DNA of 64,000 nt. Source: a virus. Both the position numbers and the translations under genes were made by a program. Location of the stretch: IMG/VR virus record IMGVR_UViG_3300006139_000001; one strand, given 5' to 3'. Positions 8,670-49,236 of this stretch are shown one piece after another. How positions within the stretch are numbered: the stretch's first letter is position 1; each line of letters opens with the position of its first letter. The notes beneath the pieces were generated by a model. It did no database searches. It was not told where the DNA came from and was given only the letters and a program-made list of their open reading frames with translations.

Positions 8670-10894
8670 TAGACATCACCATCACTGTACGCTTTGTCAT
8701 CAATATGTAATACTCTCTCTTTGATTTCCTGTGTTCTACCCTGATTCCAGAAGTTAGTCCCGATATAGCCACACGTTCTTCTTGCAACACTCATCTTGTT
8801 CTGGTCACGGTTGCCACAATTTGGGCATTCCCAAATGAGCTTCCCAGAGGTTTTATCGGTAATGATTTTAATTTCCTTGTCATAACCGCAAACCATGCAG
8901 TAGTCGCTCTTAGAGTTGAGTTCTGCATACATAATATGATTGTAGATGAACTGCATTAACTGAATAACCACTTGAAGGTTGTCATTCATGTTCGGGATTT
9001 CAACATAGCTAATAGCACCACCAGGGGATAGCTTCTGGAATTTTGCTTCGAGTTCAAGTTTATCAAATGCGTTGATTTCCTCAAACACAGGAACATGATA
9101 TGAATTTGTAATATAGTTTCTATCGGTAATCCCATCGACTTCGCCAAAGCGCTTCTTTAGGCATTTTGCGAATTTATATGTAGTACTTTCGATTGGAGAA
9201 CCATACAAGCTATAATCAATATGTTCAGCTTCTTTCCACTGAGTACATTTATCATTAAGTGCTTGCATTACCTTCAGACCAAATTCTTCACCAATACCAC
9301 CATCTGTATGACTATTACCAGTCATATACTTCACGCATTCGTATAAACCAGCATAACCAAGGGAAATTGTGGAATATCCGTTATGAAGTAACTTATCAAT
9401 CGGTTCACCTTTTTTAAGTCTTGCAAGTGCGCCATGCTGCCACAGAATTGGAGCAACATCTGAAGGAGTTCCTTCAAGTCTCTTATGACGTAGCTGTAGT
9501 GCCTTATGGCAAAGTTCTGTACGGGTTTCAAACAGTTTCCAGAATGTGTCCATATCTTTGCCAGATGAAAGCGCAATATCAGGTAGATTGATAGTTACAA
9601 CACCCTGATTAAATCTTCCATAATACTGAGGTTTGCCCTTTTCGTTGATATAAGGAGTAAGGAAACTTCTGCAACCCATGCAGGGATAGCAATTACCATT
9701 TCCATTCTTATCAACCTTGTATTCAAGCATTTTCTTTTCAGAGATGTAATCTGGCACAAGTCGTTTTGCAGAACACTCAGCGGCAAGTTTAGTTAGATAG
9801 AAATACTTGCTATTCTCGTATACATTATCTTCCTCCAGAACATAGAGAAGTTTTGGAAATGCGGGAGTAACCCATGCGCCCTGTTCATTCTTTACACCCT
9901 GAATACGCTGCCTTAGTACTTCTTCGATAATAAGTGCGAGGTCTGCTTTTGTTCTATCATCTTTAGCTTCGCCGAGATACATAAATACAGATAAGAAAGG
10001 TGCTTGACCATTTGTTGTCATTAGTGTAACAACCTGGTACTGAATTGTTTGAACACCCTTGTTGATTTCATCTCTTAGGCGCTTATCAACAATATCCATA
10101 TATTCATTATAATCATCTTCGCTTTGTGGTTCATGTCCAGTAAATTCAATATATTCGGCTAATACCTGTTCTTTGATTTTCTTTCTGCTGACTTCAACAA
10201 ATGGAGCAAGATGAGTAAGGCTAATACTCTGACCGCCATACTGACTTGAAGCTACCTGTGCGATAATCTGAGTAGCGACATTACAAGCCGTTGAGAAACT
10301 ATGCGGTTTTTCAATCATAACATTGCTAATAACCGTACCATTTTGCAACATATCTTCAAGATTAATTAAGTCACAGTTATGTGTAGCATTCTGACCAAAA
10401 TAGTCCATATCGTGAAAATGGATAATACCATCTTCATGAGCTTGAATAATGTCTGGTGTAAGCAGCATTCTCATACTAATATCAGTGCTTTCGATACCAG
10501 CCATATAATCTCTTTGAGTAGTTACAAGCATTGCATTCTTATTGGAGTTTTCTTCATTCCAATATTCACTATTATGTTCTAACAACTCCATAATAGATTC
10601 ATCGGTTGAATTTTTTACATCTCTTTGAAACTCTCTAACTCTACGATAACCCTCATAAGATTTTGCAGTAAGCACTTCGCCTTTTGCAATCAGCTTATCA
10701 AAAACCATTTCTTCTACCATGTAGATGTCAAGGTCATTAACACCTTGCACTTCCGTCTCGATTTCACTAGCAATATTTCTTGCGATTTCTGGTTTAATAA
10801 TACCACTGCCAAATGTCATCGCCTTCATGATAGCTTCATAAATCTTTTCTTTGTTAAATGGGGCTTCGGAACAATCTCTTTTAATAATGTTCAT
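8669..10894 (-). CDS. nrdD: Anaerobic ribonucleoside-triphosphate reductase (class III RNR)
   Basis: 741 aa. C-terminal zinc ribbon CMVCGY...CPNCG and glycyl-radical motif RRTCGYIG. N-terminal ATP-cone-like region. Confidence 0.9.
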   Translation of the reverse strand: MNIIKRDCSEAPFNKEKIYEAIMKAMTFGSGIIKPEIARNIASEIETEVQGVNDLDIYMVEEMVFDKLIAKGEVLTAKSYEGYRRVREFQRDVKNSTDESIMELLEHNSEYWNEENSNKNAMLVTTQRDYMAGIESTDISMRMLLTPDIIQAHEDGIIHFHDMDYFGQNATHNCDLINLEDMLQNGTVISNVMIEKPHSFSTACNVATQIIAQVASSQYGGQSISLTHLAPFVEVSRKKIKEQVLAEYIEFTGHEPQSEDDYNEYMDIVDKRLRDEINKGVQTIQYQVVTLMTTNGQAPFLSVFMYLGEAKDDRTKADLALIIEEVLRQRIQGVKNEQGAWVTPAFPKLLYVLEEDNVYENSKYFYLTKLAAECSAKRLVPDYISEKKMLEYKVDKNGNGNCYPCMGCRSFLTPYINEKGKPQYYGRFNQGVVTINLPDIALSSGKDMDTFWKLFETRTELCHKALQLRHKRLEGTPSDVAPILWQHGALARLKKGEPIDKLLHNGYSTISLGYAGLYECVKYMTGNSHTDGGIGEEFGLKVMQALNDKCTQWKEAEHIDYSLYGSPIESTTYKFAKCLKKRFGEVDGITDRNYITNSYHVPVFEEINAFDKLELEAKFQKLSPGGAISYVEIPNMNDNLQVVIQLMQFIYNHIMYAELNSKSDYCMVCGYDKEIKIITDKTSGKLIWECPNCGNRDQNKMSVARRTCGYIGTNFWNQGRTQEIKERVLHIDDKAYSDGDV

Positions 10895-22824: not shown

Positions 22825-23442
22825 TTATTCTTCCTTTTCAAGTAAATACGTTGATTCTAAATCTGCTTCAAAAATCGCTAGAACAAGCGGATATTTTTTA
22901 ATAGCAAGAGATAGAGTGTTCCAATTTTCTTTTGCCTCTGTGAAACCCATATGCCATCTAATTGCATAGCGCTCAATTGGTTTCAGCTTAATGAATTCCT
23001 CAATCATCATCACAGACTTCTCGCCATGACCATATGGAATCTTGTCATCAACTGTATAACCAGGCACAGTTTCCCAATCGTATCTGCCAGCGCTATCAGA
23101 CTTCTTACCATGGTCGCTGTAGATTTTCTTGTTCTTCATCTCAACGGCATAGTAGTTAGACTTGCAAATATCGTGAAGAAGGGCAGCAATAATAATGCTT
23201 TCTCGCCCAACCTCGCCTAATCTATCTGCCCAAACAGGGTCATTGAGTTTATCTAAGAGGCAATCGGCTACATTCAAACTATGTTCCACTAAGCCACCCT
23301 CATGGCACGAATGAAATCTCGTGCTTGCAGGAGCGGTATAGAAGTCTGACTTTCTGAGATATTCAAGAAGTTTATCCATACCGTCCCTATCGCACTCAGA
23401 CAGCATAGCTTCAAATCTTTCAATATAATCTTGATTTGCCAT
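22825..23442 (-). CDS. HD-domain phosphohydrolase (dNTP hydrolase candidate)
   Basis: H...HD metal-binding pattern: FHSCHEGGLVEHSL...AALLHDICK. 205 aa. Confidence 0.7.
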   Translation of the reverse strand: MANQDYIERFEAMLSECDRDGMDKLLEYLRKSDFYTAPASTRFHSCHEGGLVEHSLNVADCLLDKLNDPVWADRLGEVGRESIIIAALLHDICKSNYYAVEMKNKKIYSDHGKKSDSAGRYDWETVPGYTVDDKIPYGHGEKSVMMIEEFIKLKPIERYAIRWHMGFTEAKENWNTLSLAIKKYPLVLAIFEADLESTYLLEKEE

Positions 23443-23930: not shown

Positions 23931-24566
23931 TCACTTTCTAACCGCTAAAAGCTGCTTCTCTAAGTTGGTCAGAATATCAACATCTTCGATGTTGTTGTAG
24001 TTACCGGTGATAAGGTCATCGTCCAGATTTGGATTAGCCTGTTTCTCCGCCGCCTTACAAAGTTCAGCAACCTTTGCTTTTGATTTATCGGATAGAGCCA
24101 CCTTCTTGGCAGCAAGTTCCTTAATCTTCTCTTTTAGTTCGATAGTCTTAGAAGTTTCTTCCGGCAAATCCTCGCCCTCATAGATGTACAAACCAAGACC
24201 ATGTAATGCACACGCCTTAACCAGACAGCGCTTTAAGCTCTTGTTGGCATCAACGGAAGTAATCTGGTCAGCAGGAATACTCTTATTCTTGAAATCCATG
24301 ATTGCAAGAGTCTCAACAATCTCTTGACCGTTTACCGTTACACCAACTTCAACCCAGCCGGTTCTACCATCATCATGCCAGTAGCGAGTATTGCCTCCTT
24401 CATCCATAACCTGCGGATAAATCTTGTACGTCGCATCTGGATACTTCTTCTTAACCTCTGCCCACGCAGAAGCCCAAGATAGATACGATAAACCATTCTT
24501 TGTCTTAATCTTGGTAGAAACATCAACTGCGTTCAAAATGTCAAATACACTTTTATTTTCAGCCAT
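23931..24566 (-). CDS. Putative single-strand annealing / recombination protein (Rad52/Sak-like)
   Basis: N-terminal NGLSYLSWASAWAEVKKKYP pattern reminiscent of Sak/Rad52-family annealases. Adjacent to ssb. Assignment from memory of the family, not verified. Confidence 0.4.
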   Translation of the reverse strand: MAENKSVFDILNAVDVSTKIKTKNGLSYLSWASAWAEVKKKYPDATYKIYPQVMDEGGNTRYWHDDGRTGWVEVGVTVNGQEIVETLAIMDFKNKSIPADQITSVDANKSLKRCLVKACALHGLGLYIYEGEDLPEETSKTIELKEKIKELAAKKVALSDKSKAKVAELCKAAEKQANPNLDDDLITGNYNNIEDVDILTNLEKQLLAVRK

Positions 24567-24711
24567 TTCTCATTTACCTTTCATTTCTTTTTCTGATTTA
24601 ATTCTTCGCTCTAAACTAAGCGTCTCTTACCGAACAATCAATAGAATCACCTTTTCTTTATTTTGAAATATCTATATTAAACACCCTTGCGGATGGGATT
24701 GTTTGATGAAC

Positions 24712-25568
24712 TTAATAATTTGTAATTAGTACCTCAACACTACTGTTCGCAGATTTATCCTTGGTTTGGTAGTTGCAATTTTTATAGTCCATATTTAGAT
24801 AGTGGACATTGTACTTTTTGCACCATTGCTTTAGAATATCATTAGATTTGCCTTTATGTTCTAACACATTTGAAAGCGCCCATTTATATTCCGCTGCATT
24901 CAGTTCATCCAGATAATCAAGGAGTTTCTTTTCGTAGTCGGCAGACCATTTACAAAAATAGTCTCTTTCATATGCGCCGACAGTAATCAGATATGGTGGG
25001 TCAACATACACAAAAGCATTCTCAGGATTACACAACGAGCCTATATCTACATCAACGAAGTCCTTAGATAGAAATAAAATGTTGCTTTTATTTTTGACTT
25101 CTATATAGGATTTTAGCTTTTCTCTTAGTTGCGGACTAAAGTAGCTTCGTCCTGCGCCAGATGGCATATTGTACTCACCTTTTGAGTTAAAAGCTATCTG
25201 ATAGTTAAAAGCGTGTGTTAGTAGGCAATATAGGAGAACTGCATTTTCTCTGCTGGTCATTGCACCTAAATGCTCATTGTAATATTGTCGCAAATTCAGG
25301 AAACCTTGTTTGTTTTCTTTTGAGAGTTGCCATCTATTAATGACATTATCTACATCTGCAACAAAGTCGCTATCCAGGTTTTTGAAGATATTAACCAGCG
25401 GAGCAGATTTCTCGTTGTATATGTATTTGTTTGCTTCTGTATTAAATGTTACTTCGCCACTCCCCCGAACAAATCTACAAATGTATCAATGTCTGACGGG
25501 AAAAGAGGAAGTATTTGTGGTAATAGTTTGTACTTTGCTCCAATGTAGTTGAATGGATTCTTGTACAT
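24712..25568 (-). pseudogene. DNA adenine methyltransferase (Dam family) interrupted by a frameshift at a G5 tract (plus-strand C5 at 25462-25466)
   Basis: ATG at 25568 opens MYKNPFNYIGSKYKLLPQILPLFPSDIDTFVDLFGG, then a stop. With six instead of five G the frame continues ...FGGSGEVTFNTEANKY... into ORF 24712-25293, which carries the DPPY motif (VDPPYLITVGAYERDY). Preceded by an RBS and a consensus promoter. Confidence 0.75.
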
Positions 25569-25573
25569 AAGCT

Positions 25574-25620
25574 ATTATACCTCCTTTTCTCTGCTATGTC
25601 AATAGTTTTTCTGATTTAAT
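25574..25620 (-). promoter_or_regulatory. Consensus promoter (TTGACA-17-TATAAT) plus conserved upstream element, driving the Dam gene
   Basis: rc(25597-25602)=TTGACA, spacer 17, rc(25574-25579)=TATAAT. The ATG at 25568 lies only 5 nt after the -10, suggesting a leaderless or near-leaderless transcript. Motif at 25606-25620. Confidence 0.55.
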
Positions 25621-25622
25621 TT

Positions 25623-26746
25623 TTAATTGCAGACAGTTATATCTTCATTGACATCATCTGCATATTTATCAATCATCTTCCAACGAAAATGTCTATCATT
25701 TGGCACAAGCCCAAGTTCTTCAAGAAGAAAGCGTCTATCATAATCGTGAACTGTATGACCATCAGACTTGAATGTTGTTGGACTATCTAAATCCCATTTG
25801 AGCAATAAAGCCCAAAGGTTAGGATAGTCTTTTCTTAATATTCTTAACTGGTCAACGCCTTGATTATGGCAGAACCAACAACCGCCTCTTGTAGCGGTTG
25901 TATATATTGGTGAGAGCAAATTATTTTCTTCACACCATTGTCTGCAATATGCTTCATCCCATCCAATATCTACCAATGGAAGAATCTTGTCTGGAACACT
26001 GTGCCTTTTAATACGCTCTGGCTCATCGGCTGCTATTCCAAGGTACTGCACGATATTTTTCTTTGCGCCTCGCACAGTGGCGCTATCTGAAAACCCTCTG
26101 TTTGAGCTGAGTACACCAATTCCCTCTGCCGATTGAGATTGGAAATCCGTAAGGCAGCAAGTTTGAGGTCGCTGTTGCACCAAGTTCCTCTTGGGATTGG
26201 GAATCCGAGAATTGATTGTTCGCATTGCAGCGACTTTGAGTTGTGAGTTCGCTCCGCAACCTGCTCCGTGTCTCTGCCAACCGTCTCTCTCTTGTGGTTT
26301 CTTCCTGCGATTCGGAATGTGATAGAATAGCTTCTCGTAAGTCACCTTTTCCAATTCTTGACAGGGCATTGACTTTGAGCCTACTGTTACACCACGCTCC
26401 GAGCGTGTACGGGAAACCATAGATTCGGTTTTTGTTTTTTCCTGTGTTAATCCATTCATAGAATTGGATTTCGTAGGTAAGTTTCTTACCCCCGAACAGC
26501 GCAGATATGTTCAACCTCGATACCATATTTCTCTTTGATAATCTTGTCGGCGTAAGCCTTGAACTCTACCATAGGTGGTAAATCAGCCGGAATAGTATCG
26601 GTAGCCCATACTTCTGCGTGAATAATTCTGTCGAGAGGATAACCGAGTTCTTTGATGGCTTCCAAACACGCTATGCTGTCTTTGCCATATGACAATGACA
26701 ATATATATTCTGTATTTGGTTCTCTTTGCATCGATAATCCTTTCAA
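25623..26746 (-). pseudogene. PAPS-reductase / PP-loop ATPase family gene in two pieces, separated by a ~0.4 kb non-protein-like insert. N-part 26486-26731 (SYGKDS PP-loop); C-part about 25623-26075.
   Basis: N-piece MQREPNTEYILSLSYGKDSIACLEAIKELG... ends at a stop at 26486, immediately after a G5 tract. C-piece resumes with PAPS-reductase-like ...KKNIVQYLGIAADEPERIKR...GGCWFCHNQG. ATG at 26731 with an AAAGGA RBS. Confidence 0.6.
26076..26485 (-). other. GC-rich (~50% GC) intervening segment inside the PAPS-reductase-like gene. Internally repetitive (degenerate 30-60-nt tandem units) and open in two frames. Candidate self-splicing intron, iteron array or other RNA/DNA element.
   Basis: Composition sharply different from the flanking AT-rich coding DNA. 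Translation is low-complexity. Direct repeats ccaattccctctgccgattgagattggaaatccg / ccaagttcctcttgggattgggaatccgag, and ttTGAGgtcGCTGTTgCAC recurring three times. Confidence 0.4.
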
Positions 26747-26822
26747 TTTCTTTTTCCTTTTGTTATCTGTGCTATAACTTTACATCTATGTTTTATCTGC
26801 AACAAACGGTAACACGCAATTA

Positions 26823-28088
26823 TCAGTCCAATGTTTTTTCTGATTTAATCTTTTGAATTATATTTGACTTCCCATTAAAGTCATAATATTGTTGAGCAAT
26901 ATGTGGGTAAAGCGCCTCAACCATCTCCATCGCTCTCCACTCTGAACCTTTTATACCAATATCTTTTAGATACTGCTCAACATCTCTTTTGTAAAGTTTA
27001 TATCCATTTTTTCTCATCCCTCTACATTGACAAAATAATCGGAATGTAAATGTATTAAATATTGATGGTTGGTTACACCAAGCAGCAACAGCAGCATAAA
27101 ATGATGAAAACTCAGACTCATATACCTTTTCAAAACGCATTATATATGGCTTTGCACCATATTTGCTTAATATATCAATCCTATCAAACAGATTTTTTAT
27201 ATCTGTTTCCCAAAACGAGTTATCATATTTATCTTTCTTGTCGCATCCACAGAAAACATAAAATTTCAATTCTCTTTTCCAATTTGGTACGGTTTTTCTT
27301 ATCAATTCAAGTTTGGATATTATCAAATCTTTATCTTCAATATTATCAAATGCAAATATCATTTCTCCATCGTACTTCCACTTGGAAATTTCAAGTATTT
27401 TTTCTACTGTCAGCAATCTTTCATCTAACCCTTGTTTAAACTGAAATCTCTTTCCGCTATTAATTACTGGTTGTATTAGTTCTTTCCACTTTGCATATCC
27501 AAAGAAATTATCGTCTAAGAAACATACTTTTGGTCTACTATCATCTAAGAATTCGCTCAAAGAGCTTGCCTGAACAGCACCTTTATAATTCCTATTCACA
27601 CAATAATAACAACCTCTAAAACATTTTCTTGTAAGATAACCAATAGAATAATCAAGATAATATGTAAATTCAGAGCGTTTTGCTCCATTGGCTATTGCAT
27701 TGTTTACCCATTCATCGTATAGATGATAGTCTGGCATGATATGTTCTATCTCATTTGGCAGAGATGGCGCTTTATCATAAAAAAAACCAGTTCCACCGTA
27801 TTCGATATTTGGTTGTTTTAGAAATTCATTATCCTTATACCATTCTGAAATATTATCAGATGTTTTATTTGATTTATCTTCTGGCTCTCCTGGAATTTCT
27901 GTATCGGTAAATACTTTTGAGATATATACCTTATCAAATACTTCTAAACCTTCATAATCGGTTTTTAGTATAACATTGTCACCAAGTTTTTTATGATAAG
28001 CCGATATTTTCATGGAACACAAATTCGGAAATCTGTGCTTTTTCTTGCCTACAATATCAGCATCTATAACCGCAATTTTTCTACTCAA
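26823..28088 (-). CDS. Radical SAM enzyme (possibly with an N-terminal cobalamin-binding-like domain)
   Basis: CFRGCYYC (CxxxCxxC) about 160 aa into a 421-aa protein. N-terminal RKIAVIDADIVGKKK...KISAYHKKLGDNVIL resembles B12-binding-domain starts of class B radical SAM enzymes. Tentative. Confidence 0.55.
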   Translation of the reverse strand: MSRKIAVIDADIVGKKKHRFPNLCSMKISAYHKKLGDNVILKTDYEGLEVFDKVYISKVFTDTEIPGEPEDKSNKTSDNISEWYKDNEFLKQPNIEYGGTGFFYDKAPSLPNEIEHIMPDYHLYDEWVNNAIANGAKRSEFTYYLDYSIGYLTRKCFRGCYYCVNRNYKGAVQASSLSEFLDDSRPKVCFLDDNFFGYAKWKELIQPVINSGKRFQFKQGLDERLLTVEKILEISKWKYDGEMIFAFDNIEDKDLIISKLELIRKTVPNWKRELKFYVFCGCDKKDKYDNSFWETDIKNLFDRIDILSKYGAKPYIMRFEKVYESEFSSFYAAVAAWCNQPSIFNTFTFRLFCQCRGMRKNGYKLYKRDVEQYLKDIGIKGSEWRAMEMVEALYPHIAQQYYDFNGKSNIIQKIKSEKTLD

Positions 28089-28115
28089 TTTGCACTCCTA
28101 TATTTTTCAATTATT

Positions 28116-28361
28116 TTATAGTCCTGTATTTTGATTCTTGGTAACAGTAACATGCGTACCGCTTGTGTTTCCGATGAGTCTATTTGCACGTCTTATACTA
28201 TCTGCAAATTCATCGGCTTCATCTTTATTAGTAAATGCTTGATAGCATTGTTCTGTTTGACCGTAAAATTCACCATAGCGACGTGTCCATTCTACAACCC
28301 AAATGTCAATACCACTCTTTAAAGTGTGAGTTCCTTTCTTAAAAATTTTAATTATAGACAA
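28116..28361 (-). CDS. Hypothetical small protein
   Basis: 81-aa ORF. Confidence 0.3.
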   Translation of the reverse strand: MSIIKIFKKGTHTLKSGIDIWVVEWTRRYGEFYGQTEQCYQAFTNKDEADEFADSIRRANRLIGNTSGTHVTVTKNQNTGL

Positions 28362-28574
28362 TTTTCATTACTCCTATCAATAATTTCTATATTGAATAAT
28401 TCGTTTTGCTTATTTGGTAGAATATCATAATTTTCAAATGGAAGTAAATCAGGAACTCCATTAACAACATTTATACCAATTTTATTATTCATTCTAATTT
28501 TGACACGTTGGTATGTAACAATATATTTGTTTTTTGAATCCGAAAATATTTGATTTTGTAAACCTCAAACTATT

Positions 28575-28859
28575 TTAATATTTTGGGTCGATAGCGACAG
28601 TACCAACAATTTGCATAGGTCTAATAATACAATTAAACCATTCTGTATCTCGAATATCCTCTGTTGTATATACAAAATTTACTCGCCTACCTTTGAAATT
28701 TGTAAATGGTTTAACCCAATAAAAGTACAAAATAGGTGTTTCATATACAAATTCATTAGTGGAGTTAATTTTTACCACACCATTCGGAGCATTTATTGCA
28801 ACAAAACTTTTTGCAGTTTCTATATCTTCAAAAACTAAAGCAATTTTTATACGATTCAT
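28575..28859 (-). CDS. Hypothetical small protein
   Basis: 94-aa ORF. Confidence 0.3.
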   Translation of the reverse strand: MNRIKIALVFEDIETAKSFVAINAPNGVVKINSTNEFVYETPILYFYWVKPFTNFKGRRVNFVYTTEDIRDTEWFNCIIRPMQIVGTVAIDPKY

Positions 28860-29038
28860 TTTGCATTCAAATAACCTTTAAAATTAATTCCACAATTTCG
28901 TTTTACAAGTTCATCCCATAGTTCATTCCAATTTTTGCAAACAAATAATAGTTCTCTATCTTTATTATCATAAACTTGCAAATTGTTTTGCTCATCAATA
29001 TAAGCATTCAATGTACCTTTGTTGTCCATAATGTATAA

Positions 29039-42485: not shown

Positions 42486-43541
42486 TTACTCTCCATTATT
42501 ATTTGTATCAATACCAAACATTATAGAACTGCTATCACCAGACACATACTGCGGAAGCTGACCATTCCACTTTTTAATCCACATTTCCTGTAAAATCTGT
42601 TCAGTAATAGATTTTTCAAGTAGCTCATTAGCCTCTGCTTCTGCCTCTGCTGCAATGACCTTTGCTTCTGCTTCGGCTTCTGCATTGGTCTTTTTAACAG
42701 TAGCGTCTGCCTCTGCTTTTTCGATTGCTCTTTGGTTTTCAATAGCTTGCTGTTCGGCTTCAAGTTGTGCTTGCTGCTTTGCCGCAATAGCCTGGTTATA
42801 CGAATCTTCAAAATCGGCGTTGCTGATAATCACCTTGTTAATATATACAACATTCTCACCATACTTCTCATCGAGAGATTTTTGAAGATTCTCCATAGCA
42901 ATAGGTTCAATAATAGAACGGTTAGTTGCATCTGTATCAGATAGGCTCTTGCTACTTGCCTTTATAGCAGATGCTACAATGCTCTGATTAATAAGTGCAT
43001 CTTTATAATTAGCTACGTTTGCATAAATCCAAGCAGACTTCTCAGGATTAATTTGATATGTGATAATAACTCCATCATAGTAAATAGCGGTTCGCTTAGA
43101 AGTCTCAGACCAAATTTGCCCATCAAATGTAATATCCTGCTGTTTATTATTCACCTTTTCAATAGATTGTATATAAGGTAACTTCCAGTTGAAACCATTT
43201 TGAACAGTAACAGAATCAATCTGTCCAAATGTAGTGCGTACACCAGTGTAACCAGTTGGAATAATTACGATTGCGCAAGAGAATGTAAATAGTACGATAG
43301 CTACCAAAACGCCAACAATAGTGTACTTAGTTTTTACCTTGGTATATGTACCATCGCCATGATACGAATTTCTAACCTTTCTTGCTCGTGCAGAGTTAAT
43401 CATAACTGGAATTACAATAGCTACGACAAAAATTAAGATAGCCACAATTTTCAAAAATACTGTCATTTTTGTTTTAATCTCCTTATCTTGATGATTGAAT
43501 ATCATCTGAATATTTAGTTTTTGAAGTATATATATTATCAA
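42486..43541 (-). CDS. SPFH/band-7 (prohibitin/HflK-like) membrane protein
   Basis: N-terminal TM segments, SPFH core, and a long Ala/Glu/Gln-rich coiled coil (AKQQAQLEAEQQAIENQRAIEKAEADA...). Confidence 0.65.
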   Translation of the reverse strand: MIIYILQKLNIQMIFNHQDKEIKTKMTVFLKIVAILIFVVAIVIPVMINSARARKVRNSYHGDGTYTKVKTKYTIVGVLVAIVLFTFSCAIVIIPTGYTGVRTTFGQIDSVTVQNGFNWKLPYIQSIEKVNNKQQDITFDGQIWSETSKRTAIYYDGVIITYQINPEKSAWIYANVANYKDALINQSIVASAIKASSKSLSDTDATNRSIIEPIAMENLQKSLDEKYGENVVYINKVIISNADFEDSYNQAIAAKQQAQLEAEQQAIENQRAIEKAEADATVKKTNAEAEAEAKVIAAEAEAEANELLEKSITEQILQEMWIKKWNGQLPQYVSGDSSSIMFGIDTNNNGE

Positions 43542-44694
43542 AATACTGCCTTAAATCATTTATTGTACAATTACCAGCAATATCATTGGTATAATTGAGA
43601 TGAGAAACCAAAAGAGAAATTGTTGCATCTTGGATAACACTCTTTGATAAACCAATATCTTTTTGTACTCTGCCCAAGAATTCATCAAGGTCGAATTTTC
43701 CATATCTGATAGATTCTTGAAAATCGTTATGCACATTCGTTTTATCTTCAATGCAAGGATTTATTTCTTCTTTTTGGCACTCAGTAGGAAACGCACCCGC
43801 TCCATGTCTTGTAAAATAAGACCTCGTTATGTAACAGATTTCAACATCAAAACCATATGGCTTAATTCGATTTATGGGGATAAATGAAGTTGTTTTGCTT
43901 GCTGTAATATATGGAAGTGCTTTTTTGTTATCCTCGTCAAGTTCAAGTCCCTGCGCACCCTCAAAAACAATGATGTCATACATAGAGATAAGTTTATCAA
44001 ATGAAATCTGAATAACCTCTCTCTGCATTTGTCTAAGGTCTGACAAATAATGTTTAGCTAAACCATAAGAATTAATAAGTTTTTGATATTCTTCTGGTAT
44101 CTCTGTTATACCATAGCTGGCAAGTCGTTCTGGGAGATACTTATAAGCAATATCATGCAAATAACGAATGATTTCGTAATCTGTTTTGTGCTGTAATTCG
44201 CCGTATTTTAATGAATACCTTCCATCTTCGTATCGCTTTTGTGTTTCCCAAATACCATATCCACAAGAGCCATGCCTATTGTTTGCCCTTGATGTTTCAA
44301 CAATTTGGTTGATAAACATATCGTATGGTGTTGTTACTCTGCATTCCGGCGAAATATAACACTTTGGGAATTCATATCCAAATTCTTTCATTATGGTGCA
44401 GAGTGTTTCTTTTTCTTCAACAAACACCATAGGGTTCACCATAAAGTCTTGGTCAAAGTAAGTATGAGCATTATCAAATGAGCCAGAACCGAAGTGATGG
44501 AAAATGTGTCGAATGCCATTTTTCAATTCTACTGTATGACCTCTTTGACATCCACCATTAAAGAGAATATTTAAACAGAATTTGTTATCTTGATTTGCTT
44601 TTTGTGAAAAGTAGTGAGTTGCAAGACCTTTGCCTTCATCTCCATAATTGCTACCTACTACTACTTTGACCTCAACTTTACTCATATCTATCAC
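43483..44694 (-). CDS. Adenylosuccinate-synthetase-family protein (PurA homolog; candidate PurZ)
   Basis: N-terminal VVVGSNYGDEGKGLATHYF (GDEGKGK P-loop of PurA) and NGGCQRGHTV (PurA QGGHNAGHT region). 403 aa, shorter than bacterial PurA (~430). Confidence 0.7.
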   Translation of the reverse strand: MIDMSKVEVKVVVGSNYGDEGKGLATHYFSQKANQDNKFCLNILFNGGCQRGHTVELKNGIRHIFHHFGSGSFDNAHTYFDQDFMVNPMVFVEEKETLCTIMKEFGYEFPKCYISPECRVTTPYDMFINQIVETSRANNRHGSCGYGIWETQKRYEDGRYSLKYGELQHKTDYEIIRYLHDIAYKYLPERLASYGITEIPEEYQKLINSYGLAKHYLSDLRQMQREVIQISFDKLISMYDIIVFEGAQGLELDEDNKKALPYITASKTTSFIPINRIKPYGFDVEICYITRSYFTRHGAGAFPTECQKEEINPCIEDKTNVHNDFQESIRYGKFDLDEFLGRVQKDIGLSKSVIQDATISLLVSHLNYTNDIAGNCTINDLRQYFDNIYTSKTKYSDDIQSSR

Positions 44695-46490: not shown

Positions 46491-47165
46491 TCACCTTACA
46501 TTAGACATTATATCATACTTTTTTGGATTTGTCAATACTTTTTCGGATTTAATTCTAATTTCTTTTCGTTGCATTATCCACCAGTAATCAACTTGCTTGT
46601 AATCTCTACCAAAATAGTAGATATAGATATAATCATCTTTTTCAGAAACAAACAATCTACCATTGTAGCTGACCGGCGCTCTTTTGATTGACTTCATGAT
46701 TTTTCTGGCAATCTTGTCAACAGTACTTTGTGTCATACCCCAATTTCCATCGAAATATGGTTCAATCCAATTATTAAAATTGAGCCGATGTTCTTTATAT
46801 TCTTCTCGCTGCTTTAGTATACTCTTATAAGCCACCTCCAGTTCTTCAATAGTGTGCGGCTCTTTAGAATACCTAAAATCCTCTTTCTTTTCCTGGATTT
46901 CTTCTAAGTTCAAAATAGTATTGAAAAAAGATGTACCAAACGGCTCTATCTGTTTATGTATATAGAGATAATCCATATACATATTAAATTCTTCCTCATC
47001 GTAGTCTGGCTCTGAATCATAGAAATGCTCAGTAAATTCTCTTACAAAGTAATGCTGAAAAAGCCAATCAATGAACTTATTGCTTGGCTTCAATCGTCTA
47101 AATGTTAAATCCTCTGTCCTGTTAATATGTAGCGCCTTTTCAATCAAATCAGTACGTATATTCAT
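46491..47165 (-). CDS. Hypothetical protein
   Basis: 224-aa ORF. SD AAAGGAG and a consensus promoter upstream. Confidence 0.35.
   Translation of the reverse strand: MNIRTDLIEKALHINRTEDLTFRRLKPSNKFIDWLFQHYFVREFTEHFYDSEPDYDEEEFNMYMDYLYIHKQIEPFGTSFFNTILNLEEIQEKKEDFRYSKEPHTIEELEVAYKSILKQREEYKEHRLNFNNWIEPYFDGNWGMTQSTVDKIARKIMKSIKRAPVSYNGRLFVSEKDDYIYIYYFGRDYKQVDYWWIMQRKEIRIKSEKVLTNPKKYDIMSNVR
46507..46555 (-). promoter_or_regulatory. Consensus promoter TTGACA-17-TATAAT plus conserved upstream element (overlaps the 3' end of the upstream ORF)
   Basis: rc(46530-46535)=TTGACA, rc(46507-46512)=TATAAT. Motif variant tttttcGgatttaat at 46538-46552. Confidence 0.5.
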
Positions 47166-47188
47166 TGCTAATCTCCTTTGTTGTACTT

Positions 47189-47238
47189 ATTATATCACAC
47201 TTTATAGCGAATGTCAATACTTTTTCGGATTTAATTTG
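47189..47238 (-). promoter_or_regulatory. Consensus promoter TTGACA-17-TATAAT plus conserved upstream element
   Basis: rc(47212-47217)=TTGACA, rc(47189-47194)=TATAAT, then AAAGGAG and ATG 47165. Motif at 47220-47235. Confidence 0.55.
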
Positions 47239-47417
47239 TTGTCTTTTTTATAAACAAGATACAAGTAAGAATAACCACCTATATTTCCTACTGGTGCAGC
47301 ATTCAAACACATTGCAATCTCGTTAGAATCATATACTCTATTACCCTGTCTATACTGTTTACCAAAGTTTATATCACCGAATCCCCAGACCAGTTTGGGT
47401 TTGCTTTCATTACTCAT
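47214..47417 (-). pseudogene. Fragment resembling the C-terminal TRD/motif-IX region of a C5-cytosine methyltransferase
   Basis: QGNRVYDSNEIAMCLNAAPVGNIGGYSYLYLV closely parallels the M.HhaI region QGERIYSTRGIAITLSAYGGG...GGYLV. 67-aa ORF that stops before motif X. Confidence 0.4.
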
Positions 47418-47564
47418 TATACGCCTCTATCAGTTTATATGAATTTCTTAAAGCACAGCTACCCACCGTAGTAGTTATTGTACCTATCGTGTTTTGGTCA
47501 GCTCTTACATTACTATTATAATCATCGTAGATAATTATACTTTTATCTCCCCCCGCAAGATTGC

Positions 47565-49236
47565 TTATGTTACGCTCACTTGCGGAATGGTAAAATTTTC
47601 ACTGTTAATATCATCAAATAATCTATCTAAACCGACTTCAAAAGCGCCGATACCAGAGAAGTAACTACCAACTTTCAAATCATCAAACAAATAAGGCATC
47701 GCTTCGTATAGCTCTTTGAATATGTAATACAGAACATTTGTGACGATAGAGTTACCAGCTTGTTTATATAGCTGGCTATTGCTTACTCCTGCTTTCTCAG
47801 CTCTGTCAAATGCTTCATCTGAAAAACCCATAAGCCTCCAGCATTCTTTTGGCGTTAGTTTTCTAATTCTATAACCAACATCATTATTTTCAATCACTCG
47901 TTTGTCACCCCCGAATCAATGGTTCTAATCGTACCGATTGCATCATCTTTGAATGTTCGTAGACCTTCATCCATACGTCTTTCACATACCATTTTCATAT
48001 CATTTACCTTAACCAACACTTTAGGTTCTCGCTCTCCCCCCTGACAAGTGTTTATTGTTGGAGCAATACCGCCAATAGAATACACTCTGCCACATTGAGG
48101 ATTGCTAAATGTTGGTGTTCCTTTTCTTAAATTTCCTAATTGGATTATCTTGTTCATTATCATTCTCCAAAATCATTATTGAAGTTTTGATACCCAACGC
48201 TGCACATAAGGTAGGTGCAACACCCCCCCGCACCATATACAATGTTGGACTGATGCTTACCAGTTCCTTTTTCTAAAAAACCTACTTCTTCGATATTTCT
48301 CATAATTACTTCTTTGATAAGGCTACAACTCCATTCATACTTTGGTTTCCAAATCCTTTATAGTCTCTGGCAAGAAGTGTATTTGCAACTTCGGTTTCTC
48401 TATCGAAAACGCTACATTGTTTTGAGAAAAGTCCAGGCATTAAATCTGAACCATATCCCATTGATGTCGGTCTACACTTCCTCTCTCCCCCCCGCCCTTA
48501 TGGTGTTGGATATTTCTTTATCAAGTTTGCCACTTGATACAAGGTCATCAATAAGTGCTTTAGCTTGTGGAGTGTTGATATAATATTTCTCGTCAACTTC
48601 ATCTTCAAGAATATCTTTCAGCCTTAGACCATTATCAAACGGTTCTGGGAATTTGAACTTACCGTTATCAAACTCCTTCAGAATAATAATCAGATATACA
48701 CGTTCACGGTTTTGTGGAATACCGTAGTCTTTTGCATTTAACACCTGGAAATATGTATTATAGCCGTACTCGTGCAGCTCACCTAAAAACATCTGGAATG
48801 TCTCTTTGAACTGTTTACCGACGATGTTTTTGACATTTTCATAGATACCCCATTTAGGTTTATTGGCTCTAATAATTCTGAGCCATTCAACAAGTAACGA
48901 ACTTCTTGTTTTGTCAAGGCTCTCGCTGCCGCAATTCGGGCATTGATGTCTCTTTGAATAATGCACGGTGAGTGGATTGTATTCGTGACCACAATTAGAA
49001 CACTGCCACTTGCTACCTGCTTGCTTACCGGCTACTGAGAAATCTTGACACGGACTACCGCCACAAATCATATTAAATGGTTTTAGACTTGTCTCATCTA
49101 CTTTTGTTATATCTCCAAGATTTAAGGAATCATCAACACCATGCACAGCGCAGTAACTTTTCACAGCGTACTTATCAAACTCACAAAAATTCGCAAGTTC
49201 ATAACCTTTTCTTGAAGTGCTGTTTTTATTATCCAT
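47565..49236 (-). pseudogene. C5-cytosine DNA methyltransferase coding region broken into at least 3 ORFs (48472-49236, 47894-48163, 47565-47897) with G7 tracts at the breaks, and motif I located after motif X
   Basis: 48472-49236: PCQ (GGSPCQDFSVAGK), ENV, QNRERVYLI, starting right after the motif-I position (GYELANFCEFDKYA). 47894-48163: GRVYSIGGIAPTINTCQGG. 47565-47897: motif X RKLTPKECWRLMGFSD...AGNSIVTNV, then in frame motif I LKVGSYFSGIGAFEVGL. Minus-strand G7 tracts at 48487-48493 and 48223-48229. A -1 shift at each restores MTase-like sequence (…ANTLLARDYKG…, …IVYGAGGVAPTLCAALG…). Confidence 0.6.

Follow-up and report, generated by a model that had tools for sequence, protein, structure and literature searches.

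Phase-variable methylases with polyG or polyC tracts are known from bacterial phasevarions (Campylobacter, Helicobacter, and Neisseria), where the length of a repeat within the open reading frame (ORF) sets the ON or OFF state, AT-rich genomes contain G/C homopolymers that run counter to codon bias, and tract length is polymorphic between close relatives. The same features were found in a Dam-type adenine methylase gene on the minus strand, at 24712 to 25568, of IMG/VR virus record IMGVR_UViG_3300006139_000001, a stretch of 64,000 nucleotides (nt) of phage DNA that was analyzed as a whole and is referred to as the window. While the bacterial enzymes are encoded by chromosomal mod or hsd genes with the repeat in the 5′ leader region, here an orphan T4-Dam-like enzyme of a gut Clostridia phage carries a run of only five or six G residues, and this run encodes the glycines of motif I.

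Contingency loci of phages have been described only recently, and the examples found in the literature were tail-fiber genes and the agt gene of phage T2. Campylobacter Fletchervirus phages contain hypermutable polyG tracts (Sorensen et al. 2021, Cell Rep 35:109214, as presented in a paper citing it), that is, phage-borne G runs that make frame-shifted subpopulations; these tracts are 7 to 11 G long, lie in receptor-binding protein genes, and alter host recognition, whereas the runs described here lie in DNA-modification genes of phages of Gram-positive hosts. The T2 agt gene carries an A9 contingency locus that trades off two type IV restriction systems (bioRxiv 10.1101/2025.10.21.683753). 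It resembles the present case as a homopolymer in a phage DNA-modification gene, with an ON/OFF trade-off between restriction of modified and of unmodified DNA and a bet-hedging logic; it differs in that an A9 tract in a glucosyltransferase gene of a T-even coliphage, with measured reversion rates, is compared with G runs in several genes and comparative evidence only. In Bordetella phage BPP-1, a G run likewise lies inside a phage methylase gene (Liu et al. 2004, cited in bioRxiv 10.1101/2025.10.21.683753), although the enzyme family and the host are different and the tract, as the citing preprint presents it, was noted and never analyzed.

Here, we present evidence that the G runs of this Dam gene and of two companions, a PAPS-reductase-like gene (PAPS gene) and a cluster of C5-cytosine methyltransferase (Dcm) frames, are probably slipped-strand contingency sites that were caught in the OFF state.

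The Dam gene is interrupted at the glycine codons of motif I

A first-pass annotation of the window had described a canonical Dam N terminus from the ATG at 25568 followed by a stop, and this proved correct (39 amino acids [aa], TAA at 25449-25451), except that the residues read as IGSKY are IGAKY. It had also stated that one extra G restores a 285-aa Dam with the DPPY motif. Indeed, while the gene as written (G5) encodes the 39-aa peptide, the G6 reconstruction runs through DPPY for 285 aa and matched Pfam PF02086 (positions 1 to 248 of 253, E 2e-33), PHROG 56 (E 2.5e-53), and, as the closest solved relative, the T4 Dam structure 1yfj (residues 7 to 278, E 1e-41). On the strength of these matches, the gene is assigned as a T4-Dam-like N6-adenine DNA methyltransferase of the D12 class (PF02086).

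The break falls in the S-adenosylmethionine (AdoMet)-binding motif I (DLFGGSG), of which the Gly-Gly codons are spelled as a homopolymeric G run. In the G5 sequence, F-G-G stands in frame 0 (DLFGG, then VAK and a stop) and S-G-E-V in frame −1; DPPY is present, but motif I (FxGxG) and motif IV (DPPY), which are required in one polypeptide, are not joined. To our knowledge, a G run is absent from motif I of T4 dam. The T4 motif reads DLFCGG, compared with DLFGGSG here, and DPPY is common to both enzymes (PDB 1yfj and 1q0s). In the alignment of the two proteins, Ala stands at the position of T4 Arg116, i.e., this residue is not conserved. We take Arg116 to be the residue that contacts guanine, and on that assumption the target of the present Dam need not be GATC.

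The length of the Dam run is polymorphic among relatives

The G5 break recurred in about seven diverged lineages and at least 10 independent gut-metagenome assemblies, including the groups L005/L128, L131, L026/L027/L177/L178, L157/L169, L165, and L173/L174/L175, which come from different samples and assemblers; the assemblies are mostly short-read. These groups share TTC-G5-AGTGG, a first frame of 39 to 44 codons, and the whole 249-codon downstream frame ending in ..ANSSVEVLITNY, although two of the contigs run out before the stop codon. L177 lies within a 349-kb contig and is thus a prophage. In L173 to L175, Dam has been called as the same split of 39 aa and 228 aa, and the protein cluster with this G5 split (P0155) has 68 members, compared with 52 for P0124, the full-length counterpart (DLFGGSGEV). 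Among the 120 best Dam protein clusters, the gene call lacks the N terminus in roughly 40; the protein database also holds many full-length DLFGGSGE(V/L) proteins, and ON alleles are the majority there.

We surveyed the Dam run at 54 distinct loci that were left after removal of duplicates. In sister clades, motif I is DLFGGGGEV, spelled TTC-G8-TGGAGAA or TTCGGA-G8-AGAA. Uninterrupted runs of at least seven G were in frame at 17 loci, all G8, and out of frame at 8 of 25 (four G7, three G9, and one G10), with the break at the run in all 8. Where the Gly codons are interrupted (GGAGGAGGT, GGAGGGGGT, or GGTGGCGGC), 12 of the 15 loci were ON; of the three OFF loci, one seems to be cut off by the end of its contig, one is broken at another place in the gene, and one, L166, has an additional G in the run. 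The subtype of the window, in which the G run is followed by AGY, comprised two ON alleles with G6 (one of them otherwise interrupted) and 12 OFF alleles, 10 with G5 and two with G7 (L176 and L132); the intact G6 allele is that of L170. The L005 lineage has a single G6 allele, in L045 and L168 (the same sequence, from about 3170 onward), in which unrelated sequence takes over after ..EKSKQLV of Dam, perhaps through an insertion or a rearrangement.

Different run lengths also occurred where the 200 nt upstream were at least 99% identical: one such background contained 15 G8 and 3 G9 alleles, one contained 2 G8 and 2 G7 alleles, and a further one contained three distinct forms of the tract. Likewise, 4 substitutions in 846 nt separate the Dam genes of L005 (G5) and L132 (G7). 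As at known contingency loci, a repeat within the ORF sets the frame, and its length is polymorphic among near-identical genomes. No match was obtained in IMG/VR by an exact-pattern scan for the Dam tract of the window with a variable run, or among GenBank phages by a megablast search with 24000-28200.

Dam is under purifying selection

Downstream of the run, the Dam genes of the window and of L046, the closest relative (95% aa identity), differ with a synonymous divergence (dS) of 0.26 and a nonsynonymous divergence (dN) of 0.020, giving a dN/dS ratio of 0.08. Among the G5 lineages, synonymous sites are mutually saturated, while dN is 0.19 to 0.29. Dam is under purifying selection and is not long dead. 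In L046, Dam (10001-10855) is intact and encodes 284 aa, as 2 nt beside the G5 run are missing (TTCGGGGG--TGGTGAAG); motif I reads DLFGGGEV, one residue short, and the protein belongs to a cluster of 19 members (P0121). This loss of 2 nt looks like a compensatory repair of the same frameshift. Purifying selection and the restored frame of L046 both speak for an enzyme that is still in use.

G runs are enriched in the DNA-modification genes

The first-pass annotation had pointed to a 10-nt context common to the Dam and PAPS breaks, and we found two copies of TGTTCGGGGG, and no others, in the 64 kb: they lie at 25462-25471 and at 26489-26498, the second being at the premature stop of the PAPS gene; with one mismatch allowed, 0.84 matches are expected by chance. 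GGG accounts for 6.7% of the Gly codons in the 49 intact ORFs of the window that were counted, and 2 of 64 Gly-Gly dicodons start with GGG. By comparison, the Dam, PAPS, and Dcm sequences (about 4.1 kb) contain seven runs of at least five G, and 43 kb of other ORFs contain six, an enrichment of about 12-fold. The G runs are thus kept despite compositional and codon bias, which is another characteristic of contingency loci. An eighth such run of the modification genes is in frame in an MT-A70 methylase gene; it is the fourth TTCGGGGG, and in the window as well as in L046 its G5 keeps the frame. Six other G5 runs of the window, and also A or T runs of 7 to 8, are in frame within large ORFs. All four runs of six or more G in the window are in the Dcm cluster, where the lengths are G6 to G7.

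Of 15 minus-strand runs of at least five G, 12 have a C directly 5′, and four of them are TTCGGGGG, all in methylase or PAPS genes. This C context and the uniform length of five outside the Dcm cluster could stem from a limit to contraction or from a preference of the phage replicase for certain contexts.

The PAPS gene forms an allelic series

The PAPS gene is spread over three frames (Table 1), the first of which ends in a TAA directly after a G5 run, and the length of this run would determine the product: 81 aa with G5, 369 aa with G6, and 216 aa with G7. The statement of the first-pass annotation that one extra G would fuse the fragment to the downstream ORF was borne out, as G6 gives a single 369-aa ORF and exists as a natural allele in L001 (protein P0006). 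Five close relatives with the identical flanks GCTGTTC-run-TAAGAAACTTACC make up an allelic series. Like the window, L046, which comes from a different sample, has G5 and the TAA, so that reading stops after frame A (frames are defined in Table 1); G6 leads from frame A to frame C in L001 (P0006, 372 aa), and frame A is joined to frame B by G6+A in L002 and L003 (P0001, 344 aa) and by G7 in L004 (P0003, 375 aa). The G run is absent from IMG/VR relatives of the gene that are 66% identical or less, and hence it is specific to the close lineage.

The middle segment in frame B (v1 in Table 1) was informative on which frame is conserved. Between the window and L001, it showed 6 to 8 synonymous and 1 to 2 nonsynonymous changes in frame B versus 0 to 1 and 8 in frame C, and the synonymous excess moved from frame B to frame C past the (AG)n run. 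Short intact homologs, such as P0005 (270 aa, 77% identical, PHROG 424 E 3e-36), read AVRGGKKLTYE..WCNS.LK..KKNIVQYLG without the insert that the window carries. The synonymous pattern and the homology thus indicated that the conserved reading is frame A, then frame B via G7 (RGGKKLTYE), and then frame C at the AG run. Consequently, the expectation of the first-pass annotation that two ordinary genes, both intact, would result from G6 at the two sites is wrong for PAPS: the window allele is one step (G6) from the long ORF and two repeat steps from the conserved reading, and G7 alone still terminates at 26083. Between the window and L046, the ratios of synonymous to nonsynonymous changes were 13:4 in frame A (the N-terminal part) and 20:5 in frame C (the C-terminal part), which indicated that both parts are still under purifying selection though both genomes carry G5.

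The insert at 26083-26460 contains degenerate extra copies of the middle segment (YGFP..WC(N/T)..LK) distributed over all three frames (YGFPYTLGAWCNSRLKV, GAGCGANSQLKVAAM, GFPIPRGTWCNSDLKLAAL, and YGFPISIGRGNWCTQLKQ in the window, L001, L002, L004, and L046). The internal copies were detectable at the protein level only, and Tandem Repeats Finder and a repeat finder reported only weak short pairs (73 to 87%) in the PAPS region. Relatives resemble one another more closely in the DNA of the insert than in the coding sequence on either side of it. From 26459 to 26083, about 125 codons (about 375 nt) can be read in frame B as well as in frame C, and deletions between the copies shift the frame, as in L002. 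P0003 and P0004 differ by G6 versus an inferred G8 at a second run of the insert. At the same loop, (ER)n occurs in other lineages of the family, written (AG)6 in L053 and L054 (near 2754), and the insert repeats are (GA)14 in L056 (1611) versus (GA)17 in L057 (1810) and L060 (2820). A (GA)n/(ER)n repeat at the G-run loop was also observed in proteins P0021, P0035, P0038, P0065, and others. One might imagine that the gene is a multiframe switch, in which the G run and (AG)n select the copy to be read and so give isoforms (P0006 versus P0001 and P0003) rather than only nulls, but we regard this as a long shot.

A split enzyme made of three polypeptides was considered, given an ATG near the junction in each frame, and not adopted; these ATGs stem from conserved Tyr-Gly and Tyr-Glu-Trp codons. 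An Rfam search of 24000-29000 at E≤1 for an intron or ribozyme behind the insert found nothing. Pfam gave no match even at E≤1 for P0005, P0006, or the stitched window protein, nor did it match the pieces, the intact homologs, or the radical-SAM-like neighbor; the names were provided by PHROGs.

The Dcm cluster is broken in several frames

The Dcm frames carry their own G runs (Table 1). Two of the breaks require one base fewer. In the close relative L127, Dcm is divided into 311, 59, and 196 aa, and databases contain many N-terminal parts of about 309 aa; possibly, Dcm is a naturally split enzyme. A 512-aa multispecific C5-methylase (rho11s/H2-like) obtained by stitching was dropped, as close relatives are split into about 310 and 196 aa.

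Table 1. Positions of the Dam, PAPS, and Dcm features in the window
Feature	Coordinates	Strand	Description
Dam N-terminal frame	25449..25568	−	ATG 25568; 39 codons + TAA at 25449-25451; product MYKNPFNYIGAKYKLLPQILPLFPSDIDTFVDLFGGVAK, then stop
G5 run at Dam frame break	25462-25466	−	G6 restores D-L-F-G-G-S-G-E-V
Dam downstream frame	24712..25461	−	249 codons + stop; −1 frame relative to ATG; DPPY at 25002-24991
Sigma-70-type consensus promoter of Dam	25574..25602	−	−35 TTGACA 25602-25597; 17-nt spacer; −10 TATAAT 25579-25574
Shine-Dalgarno-like AAGGAGG in promoter spacer	25580..25586	−	11 nt upstream of ATG; read from sequence
TTAAATCAGAAAAA motif just 5′ of Dam −35	25606..25619	−	one of 14 copies of a promoter-associated repeat
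Terminator-like hairpin + T-rich tail after Dam stop codon	24682..24695	−	consensus scan only
PAPS frame A	26486..26746	−	TTG 26746 or ATG 26731; P-loop SLSYGKDS; ends ..EHICAVRG + TAA 26486-26488
PAPS G5 run	26489..26493	−	TAA directly after run
PAPS frame B	26083..26526	−	middle segment KKLTYEIQFYEW..YGFPYTLGAWCNSRLKVNAL (v1); stop at 26083 before C-terminal domain
PAPS frame C	25623..26459	−	open 278 codons; C-terminal domain KKNIVQYLGIAADEP...CWFCHNQG
(AG)n run in PAPS insert	26283..26293	−	12 nt longer in L001; selected frame B to C across run
C5-cytosine methyltransferase (Dcm) cluster	47150..49236	−	several frames; SPCQDFSVAGK, ENVKN, QNRERV ... RKLTPKECWRLMGF, QAGNSI
Dcm break 1	48487-48493	−	G7AGAGAGG; close relative L127 has G8AGAGG in frame
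Dcm break 2	48223-48229	−	G7; G6 would read VYGAGGVAPTL
Dcm break 3	47908-47912	−	GATTCGGGGGT vs. L127 TTAGGAGGT; third TTCGGGGG, one base short

Genome setting, control signals, and restriction sites

The phage DNA of the window has a GC content of about 36%, and almost all of its genes are encoded on the minus strand. Dam lies among genes for a Sak annealing protein, an SSB-like protein, and an HD hydrolase, followed, in synteny with L046, by DnaB, primase, a PD-(D/E)XK nuclease, and Pol III alpha; upstream of it are the PAPS gene and a gene for a radical-SAM protein (PHROG 9298). A scan of GTDB genomes yielded only three loci, in metagenome-assembled genomes of Clostridia and Lachnospiraceae, and the metagenome matches are from the human gut.

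The Dam promoter, which is kept in L046, matches the consensus at 12 of 12 positions, and its −10 element ends 5 nt before the ATG. The perfect consensus promoter of the first-pass annotation therefore stood, while its leaderless reading is not the sole option because AAGGAGG lies 11 nt from the ATG, and a longer transcript could equally well be translated by way of this Shine-Dalgarno sequence. The promoter-associated repeat, TTAAATCMGAAAAA, was found in 14 copies versus 0.25 expected, all on the minus (coding) strand and at gene ends or starts; the sites include 25606-25619, 26835-26848, 24588-24601, 47221-47234, and 46539-46552, and at least two copies are followed by TTGACA-17-TATAAT. This repeat probably acts as a phage promoter or UP-type element.

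Restriction sites were strongly avoided in the window: GATC, GGCC, and CGCG were all absent (205, 63, and 58 expected, respectively), and CTAG was at 0.2 of expectation. GATC was also absent from sampled stretches (2 to 21 kb) of the close relatives L001, L004, L046, and L127. These close relatives and most of the other sampled relatives, including most Dam loci, share the absence of GATC, GGCC, and CGCG, and one Dam subgroup retains depleted GATC.

Further genes of nucleotide or sulfur metabolism were observed. An adenylosuccinate-synthetase homolog at 43483-44694 (minus strand) matched PF00709 (E 6e-34) and PHROG 1211 (PurZ-type, 2-aminoadenine pathway; E 2e-53), and the window also encodes an HD phosphohydrolase that is possibly DatZ-like (22825-23442) and a phage MetK (49925-50989). 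The phage might replace adenine by 2-aminoadenine; the P-loop of the PurZ-like protein is GDEGKG, as in PurA, and its assignment is uncertain. In relatives, a Pfam PAPS_reduct protein precedes Dam (L173 to L175, 1-1302; L177, 573-1331), in L173 to L175 together with a class-V aminotransferase/cysteine-desulfurase-like gene, and in the window Dam is preceded by the radical-SAM protein (26823-28088) with the PAPS gene. A sulfur- or SAM-dependent nucleic-acid modification module may travel with Dam.

Proposed contingency switching and its alternatives

In the mechanism that we propose, slipped-strand mispairing at the Dam run during phage DNA replication would gain or lose a G, and Dam would toggle, being in frame at G6 and out of frame at G5 and G7; with G5 instead of G6, translation would end after 39 codons and no methylase would be made. 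The PAPS run at 26489-26493 with its (AG)n run and the G runs of the C5-methylase 22 kb away would be companion sites, so that the DNA-modification genes would behave as contingency loci and the genome would have been captured with all of them OFF. We infer that the length changes are reversible within a population and that the benefit is bet-hedging, in which hosts with classical restriction would favor methylation, while in other hosts or in lysogens methylation may be costly or hit by methylation-dependent nucleases.

Several observations weigh against this proposal. The window runs of G5 and G6 are below the usual length for phase variation (usually at least seven for homopolymers), while sister clades have G7 to G10; all window runs outside the Dcm cluster are exactly five long, and switching from G5 is probably slow. 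The differences among G7 to G10 are in part possible assembly errors in low-coverage contigs (e.g., L132, 3.6×). G5 is also the commonest allele in the subtype of the window (10 of 14) and could be a contraction sink toward gene loss. Moreover, at least five breaks interrupt the Dcm cluster, several of which do not lie at G runs, and the PAPS gene of L046 needs two run changes for full length; both observations look more like decay than switching. Finally, since GATC is absent, a GATC-specific Dam would have no target on the phage DNA. The last four of these points favor the main rival explanation, irreversible decay, in which the methylases became redundant once GATC, GGCC, and CGCG had been purged and are now being lost, the G5 alleles being young pseudogenes whose indels arise first at G runs. 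The need for more than one change to reach the conserved frame of PAPS fits this account, the fixed length of the runs outside Dcm is consistent with a sink, and pooled shallow contrasts within G5 clades (10 synonymous versus 8 nonsynonymous changes) hint at some relaxation. Decay does not predict, however, the 12-fold enrichment of G runs against codon bias, and it is hard to square with the dN/dS of Dam, with the ratios in the two PAPS halves of genomes that both carry the PAPS G5, with about seven G5 lineages that have saturated synonymous sites and an unbroken 249-codon frame, with the compensating deletion by which L046 regained its Dam frame, and with the majority of ON alleles in the protein database. 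In addition, if Arg116 contacts guanine as assumed above, the target need not be GATC at all. We therefore give decay a minority share of credence, well behind contingency switching.

The possibility that G5 is itself functional, through −1 slippage of the ribosome or RNA polymerase on the run with run length tuning the amount, was also weighed. It would explain why G5 within TTC..AGTGG is conserved in about seven synonymous-saturated lineages above a downstream frame under purifying selection. In Dam, GGA would re-pair on GGG; in PAPS, GGG would re-pair on GGG before the TAA, i.e., the P-site codon would pair perfectly one base back with the stop in the A site, and the product would be the natural G6 protein P0006. 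As in dnaX (−1) and prfB (+1), two overlapping frames encode one protein, and the PAPS stop directly follows the run as in prfB. Unlike those genes, neither site has a canonical slippery heptamer X XXY YYZ (Dam has C GGG GGA and PAPS has T CGG GGG TAA), so that only single-tRNA re-pairing is possible, and RNAalifold on six G5 lineages revealed no conserved hairpin or pseudoknot (−2.55 kcal/mol, covariation term +0.08). G5 is also far below the run lengths known for transcriptional slippage. The conserved PAPS frame after the run is B rather than the −1 frame, and a prfB-like +1 shift at GGG-TAA was rejected because frame B ends at 26083, before the C-terminal domain. The same lineages also contain G6 and G7 alleles, ON genes of full length are common, and recoding is not needed to explain purifying selection; the argument from the predominance of G5 was weakened by the many full-length DLFGGSGE(V/L) proteins. 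Recoding is thus considered unlikely. Still less probable, and indeed very improbable, is a sequencing or assembly artefact in which a true G6 at both sites was collapsed by a G-run-specific error. Homopolymers are error prone on several sequencing platforms, and three G5 breaks share the TTCGGGGG context, each needing one more G. On the other hand, the same G5 alleles were found in many independent assemblies from different samples, the fourth TTCGGGGG, the six other G5 runs, and the A/T runs of 7 to 8 are all in frame, and the two Dcm breaks that need one base fewer do not fit such an error. Judged by these comparisons, the Dam and PAPS breaks are real. Hence, of the three options offered by the first-pass annotation, phase variation, or at least a slipped-strand hot spot, is supported by the polymorphic run lengths in near-identical backgrounds and by the enrichment of G runs, sequencing error is effectively excluded, and programmed frameshifting gained no positive support.

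Implications

For the annotation of this genome, the breaks should be treated as real. In a clade of human-gut Clostridia phages, the cofactor-binding glycines of an orphan Dam are written as a slippery G run, and companion DNA-modification genes carry G or (GA)n repeats of their own; as judged from sequence, the clade adds to the known contingency-locus systems with an unusually broad comparative signal. If switching is confirmed, ‘frameshifted’ methylase genes of viromes should not be automatically corrected or discarded as errors, and the ON and OFF alleles, which are similarly frequent (clusters of 52 and 68 members), would offer a natural test system for bet-hedging against restriction and methylation-dependent defense. 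The epigenetic state of these phages would then be a stochastic, heritable trait of the gut virome.

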